From the NCBI GenBank assembly GCA_029858565.1, contig JAOUEV010000052.1, positions 1-23,858 of the forward strand: a stretch of DNA of 23,858 nucleotides, given 5' to 3'. This stretch comes from Nitrospirota bacterium (GTDB lineage Bacteria; Nitrospirota; UBA9217). A program made the position numbers and the translations under genes. Of this stretch, positions 17,973 to 23,756 are shown in pieces. How positions within the stretch are numbered: position 1 is the stretch's first letter; every line of letters starts with the position of its first letter. The notes below the pieces were generated by a model. That model saw only the letters and a list, made by a program, of their open reading frames with translations. It was not told the DNA's origin and searched no databases.

Positions 17973-18009
17973 GAAAGGCCTGCTCAGTATCGAGCGGGCC
18001 TTTTCGTTC
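17973..18009. terminator. Probable bidirectional terminator between convergent guaA and the TauE gene
   Basis: AAAGGCCTGCTC (17974-17985), loop agtatc, GAGCGGGCCTTT (17992-18003), with T-rich tails on both strands. It overlaps the TauE stop codon. Confidence 0.7.
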
Positions 18010-18733
18010 TTAGATAACGTGTTCCGGTCCAGATCAGCACCATGGCAAAAACGATGCGCAGCACCAGGTCGGACAGAACATGTGCGAGCGATCCTCCAAG
18101 ATAGGTCCCGATCAGGATGCCCGGTACCAGGCCGGGAAGCAGTGACGTCCTGACATTTCCCAGCTTACCATGCGTGTAGGCTCCGACGCCGCCTGCGGGC
18201 ACCATGGCCAGCAGCGAGGTTCCCTGTGCAAGGTGCTGACCAAAACCGGCGAGCAGCACCATGGCCGGCACCATGATCGTTCCTCCTCCCACACCCATCA
18301 TGCCTGAGAGAAATCCGGTGAATACGCCTGCCAAGAGAAGAACGACGGACCTCATCCATCCGGAATCCATACCGCTCATAGGGGGCAGATAGGGTTTCAC
18401 GAGCATGAGCAGGGAAACAAATACCAGGAAGAAGCCAAATGACCGCTTCAGCGTCCACTCGGGCAAAGAGTGCGCGAAATGCGCTCCGGCGCGGGCCGTG
18501 ATGACCGCCGTGGAGGTCAACAGGACCGCTGCCGAGATGTCGACAGCATCTTTCAGACCGTAGACGATCGCACCGGCGATACCCGTGAACACGAGGGCTA
18601 CCAGGCTGGTGCCGTGAGCCTCGTGCTGGGTGAGCTTGAGCACGCTGACCATGAGCGGGATCATGATGACACCGCCGCCTAAACCCACGAGACCGCCGAA
18701 CATGCCGGCAAGAAGACCTGTCAGAATATTCAA
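17984..18733 (-). CDS. TauE/SafE (TSUP) family sulfite/organosulfonate exporter-like membrane protein
   Basis: Two internal repeats: GLVGLGGGVIMIP...AHGTSL and GMMGVGGGTIMVP...AQGTSL, about 8 TM helices. TTG start at 18733 with GGAGG SD at 18741-18745. Confidence 0.92.
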   Translation of the reverse strand: MNILTGLLAGMFGGLVGLGGGVIMIPLMVSVLKLTQHEAHGTSLVALVFTGIAGAIVYGLKDAVDISAAVLLTSTAVITARAGAHFAHSLPEWTLKRSFGFFLVFVSLLMLVKPYLPPMSGMDSGWMRSVVLLLAGVFTGFLSGMMGVGGGTIMVPAMVLLAGFGQHLAQGTSLLAMVPAGGVGAYTHGKLGNVRTSLLPGLVPGILIGTYLGGSLAHVLSDLVLRIVFAMVLIWTGTRYLRTKRPARY

Positions 18734-18782
18734 CGACCTGCCTCCCGAGGAAGGTAAGACTTCGTTCAATCGATTGTCGCAT

Positions 18783-18811
18783 ATATTAACATAGCTGCGA
18801 AAACGTGTCAT
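18783..18811 (-). promoter_or_regulatory. Putative extended -10 promoter for the TauE gene
   Basis: Minus strand ATGACA (18811-18806), 17 nt containing TG, then TAATAT (18788-18783). Confidence 0.55.
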
Positions 18812-19054: not shown

Positions 19055-19453
19055 TCAATCGTCCGTCTTGATCTCGTCGGGGTGCACGCCGCGCATCTGC
19101 TGCCCGAACTGGTTAGCCGCAGTGATGCCGACTTCCTGGAGCATGCGCTTCATGGTGTCTTTTAGCAGGTCAAGAGGTACGTCCAAGGCCGATGCCATGG
19201 TCTCAAGGGATTCCTGCTTGGTAAAATGACGTTCGGCTATCAGGATCTTGAGAAAGTCCGCCTGAACGATATTGCGCAGCTCGTCGTCGGTGATCGTGTA
19301 ACCTGCATAGGCTTCCTTCAGCTTCTTGCCTGCTGCAAGGGAAGCGCGGTAGCTGTCCACCGCCTCGACATAGATCCGATCCTCCTCAGGGGAGAATTCC
19401 TTGAATGCAAACTCCGGCATGTCCTCTTTTTTCTTGTCTTTCTTTTTCTTCAT
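19055..19453 (-). CDS. Hypothetical protein (132 aa) with a basic N-terminus and possible C-terminal helix-turn-helix-like segment
   Basis: MKKKKDKKKEDMPEF...ADFLKILIAERHF...SLETMASALDVPLDLL. Gene-like composition, third gene before a terminator. Confidence 0.75.
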   Translation of the reverse strand: MKKKKDKKKEDMPEFAFKEFSPEEDRIYVEAVDSYRASLAAGKKLKEAYAGYTITDDELRNIVQADFLKILIAERHFTKQESLETMASALDVPLDLLKDTMKRMLQEVGITAANQFGQQMRGVHPDEIKTDD

Positions 19454-19532
19454 AGATCCGCACCTTTCAGCTGAAAGTACAACTCCTACCGCCCCCGAGA
19501 GGGACCGCAAATGCGGGCCACAACGGAGCGAT

Positions 19533-19868
19533 TCATATCATCCTGCGCTTCTCTTTCGGTCTTCGTTCGGGCACTTGCCGATGTTCGATCTTTTCCTCGT
19601 TCCATTCCGGGGAGACGTAGAGCTCGCAGTAGCAGCTGCCGTACTCCTTGATATCCGGATCGCGATAGACGCAGGGGCAGGAAATATCCTTGTCCTTTTC
19701 CCGATCACCCCAGGAGAGGCGGCAGGGACAGGAGCGGTAGCCATACCGTTGCTCGTTCGTGAGCAGTCCGCGCATGATATCCATCACCAGCTCCTTGTCC
19801 TTGTTCAGACGGATCCCCTGGGAACGGGCATACGCGGCAAGGATGTCATAGAGCTGTTCCGGTGTCAT
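19533..19868 (-). CDS. Ferredoxin:thioredoxin reductase catalytic (beta) subunit-like protein
   Basis: YGYRSCPCR, ISCPCVY and SCYCELY, the CPC/CPC/CxC pattern. The ATG overlaps the grx stop codon (ATGA). Confidence 0.93.
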   Translation of the reverse strand: MTPEQLYDILAAYARSQGIRLNKDKELVMDIMRGLLTNEQRYGYRSCPCRLSWGDREKDKDISCPCVYRDPDIKEYGSCYCELYVSPEWNEEKIEHRQVPERRPKEKRRMI

Positions 19869-20125
19869 GCGCACGCCTCAAGGGCCTTCCGGATGCGTTC
19901 TTCGTTGAATCCTACAACGATCGTGTCTCCGATGCATATGGTCGGAAAACTCACGTCCGGATTCAGCTTGCGGACCTCTTCGACGATCTTCTCCCGCTCC
20001 GGTCCGGACAAGAGATCCACATCGGTGAACTCGACGTCGATCCCGTTGTCCTGGAAGAACTTTTTCGTTTTGTTGCAGTGGGAACAAGTGCTGAGAGTGA
20101 ACAGCCTGATCTTTGGTTTTCCCAT
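19865..20125 (-). CDS. Glutaredoxin/NrdH-like redoxin
   Basis: LSTCSHC active site, cis-Pro motif SFPT, IVVGF. GGAGG SD. Confidence 0.92.
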   Translation of the reverse strand: MGKPKIRLFTLSTCSHCNKTKKFFQDNGIDVEFTDVDLLSGPEREKIVEEVRKLNPDVSFPTICIGDTIVVGFNEERIRKALEACA

Positions 20126-20145
20126 CGAACAACCTCCAGGAAATC

Positions 20146-20174
20146 ACTATAACATGCCCCATTTCTCCATGCAA
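20146..20174 (-). promoter_or_regulatory. Putative sigma70 promoter of the grx-ftr operon
   Basis: Minus strand TTGCAT (20174-20169), 17 nt with TG extension, then TATAGT (20151-20146). Confidence 0.7.
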
Positions 20175-20289
20175 ATGCTTTTGCCGCGAGGTCCGGCGAG
20201 AACTGTTTCCAACATGGGAGCGGCGATTTGAAGTATAATTAATCACAGGCGCTTGTTATGCGACGATATTTTCCCGGAGGCCCGGTAAG

Positions 20290-21228
20290 ATGCAAAACAG
20301 ACAATGGATCGCTATAGCCGCAGTACTGCTGGTCTGTGCAGCAGGATGCAGCGAACAGCAGCCCGCCCGCAAGGTCAGCCTGGAGAAGCGCGATGCGGTA
20401 ATGGAAAGCGCCGAACCGCATAAGGCAAATACCCTGCGTTTCGCCGTGGGCGGAATGATCACCCCCCGTGAAGGATTCGCCTATTACCGCCAGTTCCTGG
20501 ACTATATCGGAAAAAAGACGGGCCGGCATGTGAAATACGTCGACCGCGAGAAATATGAAGAGATCAACCGCCTGCTCGCGACCGGGGGCGTTGATGTTGC
20601 TTTTGTATGCAGCGGGCCCTATATAGACGGGAGGGAGAAGTTCGGTCTGCAATTGCTCGTAGCGCCGCAAGCCTATGGAAAACCGATCTACTATTCCTAT
20701 ACCATCGTTCACAAGGATAGCCGGATCACCCGGTTCGAGGACCTGCGGGGCAAGGTGTTCGCGTTCACTGATCCTGACTCGAACACCGGGAAGCTCGTTC
20801 CCGAGTACCGGCTTGCAAAGATGCATGAGACCTCGGACTCGTTCTTCCTGAAATACGTGTATACCTACAAGCATGATCAGTCGCTCAAAGCGGTCGCGCA
20901 GAAGGTGGTGGATGGCGCCGCGGTGGACAGCCTGATCTGGGAGTATGCGAACCGGAAGAGCCCCCAGTACACTTCGCAAACAAGGATCATCTGGAAGTCC
21001 CCGCCCTACGGGATACCGCCCGTGGTCGTGCGTCCGGGCCTTGATCCCGCGCTGAAGCGCGAACTGAAGCGGGCATTCCTGAACGCTCATGTCGATCCGG
21101 AAGGCAGGGAACTGCTTGAGAACATGATGATCGACCGGTTCGTGGAGATCAATGACAGCGCCTATGATTCGGTCCGTGAGATGAAATCCTGGATAGGACA
21201 GCAGAAAAAAGGGAAGAAGGCGCGATAG
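20290..21228 (+). CDS. PhnD/AioX-like oxyanion-binding lipoprotein
   Basis: Signal peptide with lipobox AAGC; DVAFVCSGPY, GKPIYYSYTIV, DLRGKVFAFTDPDSNTG, SPPYGIPPVV. Confidence 0.88.
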   Translation: MQNRQWIAIAAVLLVCAAGCSEQQPARKVSLEKRDAVMESAEPHKANTLRFAVGGMITPREGFAYYRQFLDYIGKKTGRHVKYVDREKYEEINRLLATGGVDVAFVCSGPYIDGREKFGLQLLVAPQAYGKPIYYSYTIVHKDSRITRFEDLRGKVFAFTDPDSNTGKLVPEYRLAKMHETSDSFFLKYVYTYKHDQSLKAVAQKVVDGAAVDSLIWEYANRKSPQYTSQTRIIWKSPPYGIPPVVVRPGLDPALKRELKRAFLNAHVDPEGRELLENMMIDRFVEINDSAYDSVREMKSWIGQQKKGKKAR

Positions 21229-22602
21229 ATGCTGACACGTCTTGGCAGTCTCTATGCGAAGGTCCTTGCTGGTATGAGCGGGCTCATACTGCTCATGGGC
21301 GTCGTGCTCATTGTCTTTGTGGAGACCGTGGTGCAGGAGCGGCTCCATGCATCACTGCACAGGCGTGGTTCGTACATCGCACAGGAGGTCGCCAGTGAAA
21401 GCACTGATCCCCTCCTGACGGACCGGCACGTGGCAGTGGACATGCTGCTCCGGGACATTCAGGAAATGGACAAGGATATCGCCTATGTCTTTATTCAGGA
21501 CCCGCTTGGCAAGGTTATCATCCATACCTTTGGCAAGGCCTTTCCCTCTGATCTCCGAACGTTGGGCGTGATCGTAAAGGGCGGTCCGTTGCGAATGGAA
21601 CATCTGGAGACCGAGACCGGGCCGATCCTGGACTTTGCCGCTCCGATCATGGAAGGTTCGCTCGGCACGGTGCATGTCGGCGTCTTTGAGGCGTCGCTGA
21701 GGCGAGAAGTGACCGGGATCGTCATGAAGCTCCTGCTGATCATTGCGCTGGTGATGATCATCGGCACCGGTATCGCAATGGTCGTGGCGCGGGCGGTTAC
21801 CAGGCCGGTGCATGCCCTGGTCCGGGCGATCCGGGAGGTCGCTGCGGGGAACCTGGATGTGGCCGTCGATGTGCGGGGAGCGGACGAGGTCGGGGTGCTT
21901 GCGGCATCGTTCTGCGATATGCTTGCGAAACAGCGGGAGTCGACCGAAGCGCTTCAGGTGAGCGAGAAGAAGCTGCGGGATATCGCTGCGAGCCTTGGTG
22001 AAGGAGTGCTGGTCATGGATTCCCGGGGGATGCTCACCTATATGAACCCTGAGGCGGAAAACCTGCTGGGATGGAAGGCTGACGAGTTGTTCGGCAAGGA
22101 CGCCCATGACTATCTGCATGCGCACCATGGAGACGGGTCGCTCAATGAGAAGGACCGGTGCCCGAGCACGATGGTGCTCGTTTCAGGGATCCGTCAGGTC
22201 GTGGAGCGGGACATGTTCTTGTGCAAGGATGGATCATTCCTTCCGGTGTCGTACGTGACCGCGCCGATACGGGAGGGAAAACGGGTCGTAGGCGCCGTGA
22301 TCGCCTTCCAGGACATCACCATGCGTCAGTTGGTCGAGGAGGAGCGAGAACGGCTGATTGAGGAGCTGAAGGACGCTCTCGAGAACGTCAAGACCCTGCG
22401 CGGACTCATCCCGATCTGTTCCTCCTGTAAACGGATCCGTGATGACAAGGGATATTGGAGCCAGATCGAAGCCTATGTCCACAAACACTCCGATGCCGAG
22501 TTCAGCCATTCCATCTGCCCCCAGTGCGCGGTCAAGCTCTATCCGCAGTATTACAAGCCCGAAGGTCACGACAGCGCCGGGCCAGAGGAGGAAAAGCCAT
22601 GA
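21229..22602 (+). CDS. Membrane sensor: TM, periplasmic domain, TM, HAMP, PAS, coiled coil and C-terminal Cys4 domain; no kinase domain
   Basis: HAMP TRPVHAL...DEVGVLAASF, PAS EGVLVMD...MNPEAENLLGW...AFQDIT, and C-terminal IPICSSCKRIRDDKGYW...FSHSICPQC. No H-box, HATPase, GGDEF or EAL motif seen. Confidence 0.88.
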   Translation: MLTRLGSLYAKVLAGMSGLILLMGVVLIVFVETVVQERLHASLHRRGSYIAQEVASESTDPLLTDRHVAVDMLLRDIQEMDKDIAYVFIQDPLGKVIIHTFGKAFPSDLRTLGVIVKGGPLRMEHLETETGPILDFAAPIMEGSLGTVHVGVFEASLRREVTGIVMKLLLIIALVMIIGTGIAMVVARAVTRPVHALVRAIREVAAGNLDVAVDVRGADEVGVLAASFCDMLAKQRESTEALQVSEKKLRDIAASLGEGVLVMDSRGMLTYMNPEAENLLGWKADELFGKDAHDYLHAHHGDGSLNEKDRCPSTMVLVSGIRQVVERDMFLCKDGSFLPVSYVTAPIREGKRVVGAVIAFQDITMRQLVEEERERLIEELKDALENVKTLRGLIPICSSCKRIRDDKGYWSQIEAYVHKHSDAEFSHSICPQCAVKLYPQYYKPEGHDSAGPEEEKP

Positions 22603-23177
22603 AGAGATCATTGACCATAGTAGCAGTGCTCCTGGCCGGTCTTACCGCATGCAGCCCGGTGCTGAACAGGGAGTATATGGACAGCGGCGCCCGGGAGTTC
22701 AATCCTTCCCACCTCATTGAAACGCCGGAGGTGTTCAAGGACAAGCTCTTCATACTGGGCGGCGTGATCGTCGAGACCAAGCTGGCAGAGCAGGGATCCC
22801 AGATCGAGGCATTGTTCGTGCCGGTAGACCGCTACGGCTACCTGAAGGACGCCAGCCGTTACCAGGGCAGGTTCCTAGCGCTTTATCCCAAGTCGCGCGG
22901 TATTCTGGATCCGCTGATCTACAAAAAAGGCAGGGAGATCACGATAGCAGGGGATTTCATTGAGGCGCGAACGGGCAAGATCGACCAGATGGACTACCAG
23001 TTCCCGGTGTTCGAGATCAGGCAGGTCTATCTCTGGGAGGAGCTCAAGGACTACCGCATGCCTTACTATTACTACTATCCCTATCCCTTATCATACCCGA
23101 CCTGGAATCCCTGGTGCTATGACGCCTGGGGCAGGCCTTATCACTGTCCGCCGTATTGGGGGCCCTATCCGTGGTAA
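22599..23177 (+). CDS. Slp-family outer-membrane lipoprotein with an aromatic/Pro-rich tail
   Basis: MKRSLTIVAVLLAGLTAC lipobox, LGGVIV, GRFLA, LDPLIYKKGREITIAG, YQFPV...YLW. ATGA overlap with the sensor stop. Confidence 0.85.
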   Translation: MKRSLTIVAVLLAGLTACSPVLNREYMDSGAREFNPSHLIETPEVFKDKLFILGGVIVETKLAEQGSQIEALFVPVDRYGYLKDASRYQGRFLALYPKSRGILDPLIYKKGREITIAGDFIEARTGKIDQMDYQFPVFEIRQVYLWEELKDYRMPYYYYYPYPLSYPTWNPWCYDAWGRPYHCPPYWGPYPW

Positions 23178-23561: not shown

Positions 23562-23756
23562 ATGAAGATACGAGATGTCATAAAATTAATCGAAGAGGAC
23601 GGTTGGTATCTGGTCGTTACAAAGGGAAGTCACCGTCAATACAAACATTCGATAAAACCCGGACGAGTAACGATAGCCGGTCATCCGGGTGACGAAATGG
23701 CGCCGGGGACATTGAACAGCGTTCTCAAGCAGGCGAAACTGAAGGAGGTCACGTAG
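23562..23756 (+). CDS. hicA: HicA-family toxin (mRNA interferase)
   Basis: 64 aa, DGWYLVVTKGSHRQYKH...VTIAGH...GTLNSVLKQA with the catalytic GSH His. Confidence 0.93.
   Translation: MKIRDVIKLIEEDGWYLVVTKGSHRQYKHSIKPGRVTIAGHPGDEMAPGTLNSVLKQAKLKEVT

Follow-up and report, generated by a model that had tools for sequence, protein, structure and literature searches.

A kinase-less AioX/ArrX-type sensor locus of a Nitrospirota bacterium and its candidate four-cysteine output module

How could a periplasmic binding protein of the arsenic-sensing type pass a signal into the cell when the membrane sensor encoded beside it carries no histidine kinase? The question is raised by three genes on the forward strand of contig JAOUEV010000052.1 from a Nitrospirota bacterium (GenBank assembly GCA_029858565.1), of which positions 1 to 23,858 were analysed (the window; 23,858 nucleotides). 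The genes encode a binding protein (20290-21228, +; 312 amino acids), a membrane sensor (21229-22602, +; 457 amino acids) and an Slp-family lipoprotein (22599-23177, +; 192 amino acids). The TAG stop codon of the binding-protein gene directly abuts the ATG of the sensor gene, and the sensor stop and the Slp start share an ATGA overlap. An earlier note on this DNA had described a trio of translationally coupled genes without an ABC permease, an ATPase or a response regulator. The coupling was confirmed by the open reading frame (ORF) coordinates, the abutment and the overlap. A scan of 25 ORFs, the larger ones of the window, found no ABC permease, no ABC ATPase and no response regulator (smaller ORFs lay outside the scan). 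We consider that the trio is probably an AioX/ArrX-like oxyanion-sensing pair of binding protein and sensor (X-S), in which the histidine kinase is replaced by a C-terminal output with four cysteines (the Cys4 tail) that contacts a cytoplasmic target.

The binding protein (20290..21228, +) was assigned to the AioX/ArrX subfamily of periplasmic binding proteins, as a lipoprotein, from its PF12974, TIGR01098 and PDB matches and its pocket residues. Pfam identified it as Phosphonate-bd (PF12974, 4.9e-64). It has a lipoprotein signal peptide, and the lipobox cysteine, Cys20 (codon 20347-20349), is invariant in 24 orthologues. The best PDB sequence matches were ArrX (1.8e-59, 204.8 bits) and AioX (1.8e-43, 152 bits), with weaker matches to PtxB (66.9 bits) and PhnD (63.4 bits) at about 1e-17 to 1e-16. 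The protein scored above the TIGR01098 subfamily cut-off and did not reach the PhnD equivalog TIGR03431 (147.6 bits, cut-off 261.1). In the genome, which is rated 100% complete, neither transport partner reached its cut-off: the best PhnE match scored 26.1 bits against 216.7, and the best PhnC match 206 bits against 266.1. By sequence, the binding protein belongs with the sensing AioX/ArrX/ArxX proteins and not with transport PhnD, in agreement with the suggestion in the earlier note that it is of a sensing rather than a PhnCDE type.

The AioX pocket is given by Badilla et al. 2018 (PMC5908839) as Tyr88, Cys106, Tyr131, Ser161, Ser163, His192 and Asp210; there, arsenite is bonded to Cys106, and PhnD is described as having no equivalent residue. 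The residues aligned to this list in the present protein are Y89, C107, Y134, S164, T166, H195 and D213, six of the seven being identical and the change from AioX Ser163 to Thr166 being conservative. The aligned cysteine, Cys107 (codon 20608-20610), is the one for which an AioX-type motif had been claimed. All six identical residues (Y89, C107, Y134, S164, H195 and D213) are invariant across 24 orthologues. As the pocket is described in the same paper as common to arsenite- and arsenate-specific proteins, with specificity not set by the pocket residues alone, the ligand cannot be read from the pocket. Another contig of the genome carries acr3 and an arsC-like gene, and no arsenic-metabolism genes lie near the trio; nothing in its surroundings therefore links it to arsenic genes.

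Across 40 relatives, every close orthologue of this protein, at 47-66% identity, adjoins an sCache_3_2-HAMP sensor. A metagenome scan with the binding-protein alignment yielded 467 relatives, from which the best 80 loci were taken. Thirteen of these end at the binding-protein gene, and a sensor N-terminus was found by tblastn directly downstream of it in 64 of the 67 informative loci. The sensor output was judged in 44 metagenome loci and was a PAS-tail form in 20, a short tail form in seven, a distant tail in one, a kinase in six, GGDEF in six and unknown in four. In related genomes, Pfam analysis of the neighbouring sensors identified a Cys4-tail sensor beside the binding protein in G014, G024, G010 and G015, a short sensor with an sCache-like N-terminus, HAMP and tail and no PAS domain in G019, a PAS-GGDEF-EAL output in G011, and a PAS-HisKA_3-HATPase sensor followed by a LuxR-type regulator in G008. 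The classical X-S-R layout, in which a HisKA-HATPase sensor precedes a sigma-54 regulator, was present with a tandem double binding protein in G036, G009, G024 and G006. A quick tree of the binding proteins interleaved the output types, with an unresolved backbone. The pairing of binding protein and sensor is conserved, and the outputs are interchangeable. Since 50 near-full-length sensor orthologues and 27 of the 44 judged metagenome loci carry the kinase-less form, it is a recurrent variant rather than a local accident or a one-off; the survey of homologous loci proposed in the earlier note thus found that not all of them carry a kinase. In the kinase-type loci L021, L024, L025 and L026 of the relatives, the tandem fused binding proteins have 565-576 amino acids; an sCache_3_2-HAMP-HisKA kinase and then a sigma-54 regulator come next, an AioXSR-like arrangement in which one chain holds two binding domains.

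The sensor (21229..22602, +) was resolved by Pfam, NCBIfam and AlphaFold2 (AF2) into a first transmembrane segment (TM1), a periplasmic sCache_3_2 domain (residues 37-164; 21337..21720, +; PF17203, 1.6e-10), which is the presumed docking site for the binding protein, a second transmembrane segment (TM2), a HAMP domain (residues 185-233; 21781..21927, +; PF00672, 1.6e-12), a cytoplasmic PAS domain (residues 249-363; 21973..22317, +; PF00989, 2.1e-11), a long helix and the Cys4 tail. The AF2 model of the whole sensor showed the same order of elements, with a predicted local distance difference test score (pLDDT) of 80.3. No HisKA, HATPase_c, GGDEF, EAL, PP2C or MCPsignal domain was matched in the whole protein by Pfam or NCBIfam. 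HD-GYP and helix-turn-helix (HTH) domains were likewise unmatched in the whole sensor by Pfam and in its last 87 residues at E <= 10. The claim that the sensor lacks a kinase and a phosphorelay output is supported by these scans, in which no curated output domain appeared. A protein search returned 50 sensor orthologues of 431-460 amino acids (at least 91% coverage, 44-64% identity); all 50 share the domain list, and none has a kinase. Three residues of the PAS domain, His293, His297 and Cys311, do not vary among 25 orthologues; they could hold a cofactor or metal, so that the domain would provide a second, cytoplasmic input. Short sensor variants without the PAS domain also occur.

The candidate output module (22318..22545, +) comprises a conserved helix (residues 364-388) and a CxxC-x29-CxxC core (residues 393-439), with the cysteine pairs encoded at 22417-22428 and 22516-22527. 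The last ~75 residues of the sensor had no sequence match in Pfam, NCBIfam or the PDB even at E <= 10. The last 87 residues were then searched against 1.84 billion cluster representatives and gave 21,800 matches at E <= 1e-3, 16,654 at <= 1e-10 and 42 at <= 1e-30. Motif statistics were taken from the best 150 of the 21,800 matches. The CxxC-x29-CxxC motif was present in 149 of the 150, the spacing between the pairs was 29 residues in every one of 174 motif instances, and no more than 30 residues followed the last CxxC in 132 of the 149 motif-bearing proteins. Two tails were carried by 25 of the 150, in a tandem input-tail-input-tail arrangement. The shared signature runs from a helix, EERExLIxELQxAL, into KTLxGxxPICxxCKxIRDDxGxW...E.Y...H...FSHxxCPxC...YP. 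The earlier note had recorded the Cys4 tail, which is indeed present, but had missed its breadth as a recurrent output domain.

A Pfam scan was performed on 50 of the best 150 tail proteins, selected by length or a double match and not at random. The domains accompanying the tail were REC, PAS, GAF, MASE6, HisKA_7TM, dCache_1, HAMP, PilJ, CHASE3, Reg_prop/Y_Y_Y and ABC_sub_bind, and a kinase core, cyclase, phosphodiesterase, methyl-accepting chemotaxis protein (MCP) or HTH domain was found in none of the 50. The Atlas added architectures with MASE3, Tll0287, 4HB_MCP and REC, the aligned tail itself being classed as "no family". Stand-alone helix-tail proteins of 82-107 amino acids exist. Tails of paralogues whose inputs and architectures are unrelated share 60-75% identity. 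Database names of tail proteins are limited to "hypothetical" or "PAS domain". No description of the tail was found in Creative Commons-licensed PMC papers and bioRxiv, either generally or by text searches with tail peptides (subscription journals and supplements were not covered).

A genome scan gave at least 584 tail loci. According to their record titles, the 80 that were kept span Nitrospirota, Deltaproteobacteria/Thermodesulfobacteriota, Verrucomicrobiota, Spirochaetota, Acidobacteriota, Ignavibacteriota and Chloroflexi, as well as Gemmatimonadaceae, Nitrospinae, Armatimonadia, Synergistia, Victivallis, an anammox planctomycete, Chromatiaceae and others. The 66-residue tail core was found in 28 of 41 related genomes, at 0-12 copies each. 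In the genome of the present bacterium, tblastn detected three copies, namely in the sensor and on contigs C27 and C142, where a strict regular expression found one. The C-terminal part of the C27 frame matches PAS-tail. The C142 copy (C142:63845-64501, +; L187:6900-7502) is a REC-tail response regulator gene that overlaps the stop of a PAS-HisKA_2/HWE kinase gene and adjoins a Tll0287-HisKA kinase and an OmpR-type regulator. REC-tail genes directly followed PAS histidine kinases in all three loci checked, and the tail is therefore also an output of two-component regulators. A shortened look-alike of the tail, with CxxC...SHGICxxC and no Trp-Glu-Tyr helix, was seen at the N-terminus of a frame elsewhere in this genome (C47:42407-42973, +).

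The AF2 model of the tail (pLDDT 76.8) consists of a helix, a strand, two helices, a strand and a helix. At E <= 1e-3, Foldseek matched this model to nothing in the PDB, and VIA-align against 48,161 chains reached a Z-score of 2.5 at best; neither search tied this moderately confident model to a known zinc-ribbon or treble-clef fold. A literature search for the CxxC-x29-CxxC spacing brought up only zinc sites in EpsE and in papillomavirus E6/E7; the shared spacing was taken as a coincidence because the fold search did not find these proteins. A likeness to HNH, DksA/TraR or ZAS modules was considered and dropped for want of a match. No recurrent gene neighbour of the tail was identified in the 80 loci, where the largest non-sensor cluster reached six, and none was identified around 18 REC-tail loci.

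We propose that the lipoprotein would capture an oxyanion in a pocket that includes Cys107, and that the loaded protein would dock on the periplasmic sCache_3_2 domain of the sensor. The signal would then pass through TM2, HAMP and the cytoplasmic PAS domain, where a further input from inside the cell may join it, and down the long conserved helix to the ~60-residue CxxC-x29-CxxC module. The four cysteines of this module most likely coordinate a metal, and the module most likely signals by contacting one conserved cytoplasmic target, encoded elsewhere, and not by phosphotransfer. A metal-stabilised module that contacts a single target is suggested by its terminal position after a helix, its 60-75% identity and the absence of a recurrent neighbour among the loci surveyed. 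More tentatively, as something that may well prove otherwise, the helix and tail could represent a novel type of output domain in bacterial signalling, with a role like that of kinase, GGDEF or MCP domains, which would serve Cache/HAMP, PAS, GAF, MASE and REC inputs in more than a dozen phyla and act on a common cytoplasmic target.

Several observations weigh against this proposal. A module that is highly conserved and has no linked partner could also be a small catalytic unit or one that binds nucleic acids. The tail models are of moderate confidence, with a pLDDT of 76.8 for the tail alone and about 60-75 within the whole sensor, and the REC-tail copy on C142 is divergent and lacks both conserved histidines. 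The neighbour clustering of the 80 tail loci and the 18 REC-tail loci used crude ORF calls. The metagenome output classes were assigned by tblastn with queries taken from relatives, and not by Pfam, and some of the metagenome loci are identical copies of one another.

The third gene of the trio encodes an Slp-family protein (PF03843, 8.6e-32; 110.1 bits, gathering threshold 22.5) with a lipobox L-T-A-C at residues 15-18 (Cys18); it scored below the TIGR00752 superfamily cut-off (61.9 against 88.45 bits). An Slp gene was found downstream of the tail-type sensor in four of eight genome loci (the present locus, L013, L014 and L017) and not in L015, L016, L028 and L078; the loci L027 and L050, which duplicate L016 and L017, were not counted again. 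In the metagenome, it followed the tail-type sensor in 16 of 27 loci (15 of the 24 keeping at least 300 bp past the tail) and was present in none of 17 loci with other outputs. The gene is thus part of the trio here, as the earlier note had it, but is not a general member, and we regard Slp as an accessory lipoprotein of the outer membrane that goes with a single sub-lineage of such loci.

Slp-bearing loci are accompanied by a divergent operon (19055..20125, -), which by Pfam encodes a glutaredoxin-like protein (Grx; 19865-20125, -) and a protein like the ferredoxin-thioredoxin-reductase catalytic chain (FTR; 19533-19874, -), together with orf151, a small conserved protein of ~131 amino acids (19055-19453/19510, -). 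Of the 21 metagenome tail-type loci that extend far enough in both directions, 14 had Grx upstream as well as Slp downstream and seven had neither, with no discordant locus. The operon was present in five of the eight genome loci, where L015 is an exception, having Grx and no Slp that could be found. In some loci (L017, L107, L112 and L114) a TauE/SafE-family anion permease gene is next in the divergent direction, as with the one at 17984..18811 (-; PF01925, 1.7e-48). The orf151 protein has a Lys-rich N-terminus, is common in Nitrospirota (Atlas clusters) and showed 74% mean column identity in 12 sequences; its gene travels with the Grx-FTR genes beside the sensor in Slp-type loci. Its language-model neighbours were Sigma70_r4/HTH clusters at 0.83-0.87, a weak signal, and profile matches to an ArsR regulator (E 0.76) and to Sigma70_r4 (two of 12 members, E 0.012) were below significance. 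The intergenic region between the Grx and binding-protein genes (20126..20289) was examined by promoter scan and by an alignment of 22 loci, across which two back-to-back sigma-70-like promoters are conserved. On the minus strand, CAGTATAACA...TGCAAAT can be read as an extended -10 and a -35 element, and a TATAAT box is present for the sensor operon. No clear operator-like palindrome was seen in this alignment.

These neighbours bear on two other explanations of the tail. It could be a DNA- or RNA-binding zinc module, with the sensor acting as a membrane-tethered one-component regulator of the divergent Grx-FTR-orf151(-TauE) operon. The co-occurrence of this operon with Slp-bearing tail loci (14 both, 7 neither, 0/21 discordant) and its presence in five of eight genome loci would be consistent with such a role; REC-tail proteins resemble response regulators with a small output, and Cys4 modules of archaeal regulators are predicted to bind DNA or RNA in PMC5847659. 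However, the 60-75% identity of the tail across unrelated inputs and many phyla does not sit easily with a wide variety of DNA targets. Moreover, seven tail-type loci lack the operon, the promoter-bearing intergenic alignment has no clear operator palindrome, and no nucleic-acid-binding fold was matched by the tail, and we consider this explanation unlikely. It is very unlikely that the tail instead captures and releases orf151, as a possible sigma-region-4/ArsR-like HTH protein, in the manner of a zinc anti-sigma domain, with orf151 then regulating transcription. While orf151 is conserved, travels with Slp-type loci and gave weak HTH signals, all of these signals were below significance, and seven tail-type X-S loci lack the gene. 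Orf151-like genes were not recurrent around the 80 general tail loci or the 18 REC-tail loci, and orf151 therefore cannot be a general partner of the tail.

The tail might also have no output role of its own. It would then be an input that senses metal or redox state, or a clasp for dimerisation, in proteins that act by forming heterodimers with genuine kinases or cyclases. Redox switching is one function that Cys4 sites can have, PAS and HAMP sensors often dimerise, and the same spacing is listed for zinc sites with a structural or dimerising role in papillomavirus E6/E7 and EpsE. Against this, REC-tail proteins would become two-input regulators without an output, helix-tail proteins of 82-107 amino acids stand alone, and no other output domain accompanied the tail in any of the 50 scanned proteins, all of which makes such a role decidedly unlikely. 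As for the binding protein, it goes by the name "phosphonate transport system substrate-binding protein" in public databases, as do its orthologues, and its TIGR01098 score would suit an ordinary phosphonate, phosphite or phosphate transport protein with a permease encoded elsewhere and an incidental sensor neighbour. Such a transport function is highly improbable given its TIGR03431 score of 147.6 against 261.1 bits, its far closer match to ArrX and AioX than to PhnD and PtxB, the lack of a PhnE or PhnC over cut-off in a genome rated 100% complete, its translational abutment to the sensor and the pairing in 64 of 67 loci.

Our preferred explanation, an X-S pair with a Cys4-tail output, was compared with known systems. 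The trio resembles AioX-AioS-AioR and ArrX-ArrS-ArrR, three-component systems that sense arsenic oxyanions (PMC5908839), in having a PhnD-fold binding protein of the same subfamily, with the pocket Tyr, Cys, Tyr, Ser, His and Asp kept, encoded directly before a membrane sensor; it differs in the change of Ser163 to Thr and in having no arsenic-metabolism genes nearby. The classical arrangement of HisKA kinase plus sigma-54 regulator does occur in relatives of this genome, whereas the trio has a PAS domain and the Cys4 tail instead of a histidine kinase, and no response regulator among the scanned ORFs of the window. In TtrS/ThsS-type kinases, a fused PhnD-like periplasmic input domain senses a sulfur oxyanion; the trio differs in its separate lipoprotein binding protein and kinase-less sensor. 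ANTAR and PilZ are small non-enzymatic outputs of response regulators, and DksA/TraR and zinc anti-sigma proteins are helix-plus-C4 zinc-finger proteins. By analogy, the tail is likewise short, C-terminal after a signalling helix and presumed to bind a macromolecule, with four cysteines in two CxxC pairs, but its sequence matched nothing at E <= 10, its model gave no fold match at the thresholds above, and it has its own 29-residue spacing and KxIRDDxGxW...FSHxxCPxC motif. NlpE-CpxA and RcsF-Rcs are examples of outer-membrane lipoproteins that help envelope sensors. The trio likewise has a lipoprotein gene co-expressed with an inner-membrane sensor, although Slp belongs to another family (PF03843) and is missing from many tail-type loci.

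Upstream of the trio, the Pfam scan of the window identified adk, sat, apr, qmoABC, an H+-pyrophosphatase gene, guaA and the TauE permease gene, with the sat-apr-qmo cluster 9-18 kb away. A sulfate-reduction cluster is therefore near the trio, as had been noted; a functional tie was not borne out. The synteny of sat-apr-qmo with the trio is kept in G014 but was not seen in G024, where the upstream 15 kb were checked; proximity to sulfate-reduction genes is therefore not general among these loci. The G014 locus (L205; G014:C1:124000-143999) is syntenic with the window in the order adk-sat-apr-qmoABC-pyrophosphatase-HD-CxxCxxCC-orf264-guaA...orf151-FTR-Grx, at 61-92% protein identity. A HicA toxin-family gene (PF07927, 4.5e-23) was observed just 3' of the trio at 23562-23756 (+), the window ending before any HicB partner. 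A PP2C-family phosphatase gene lies at the far end of the window, past the sulfate-reduction cluster (161-1156, -), with no link to the sensor seen.

These loci show that AioX/ArrX-type periplasmic oxyanion sensing is not tied to a phosphorelay: the same binding-protein/Cache input is wired to kinase, cyclic di-GMP or Cys4-tail outputs. If the tail does form a new class of output domain, the kinase-less sensor would be one entry point to an unrecognised signalling route. As the tail family (16,654 matches at E <= 1e-10) is unnamed in curated libraries, thousands of proteins annotated as "PAS domain S-box proteins" and "response regulators" have an output that nobody has explained. The target of the tail, once found, would make the roles of these proteins testable.

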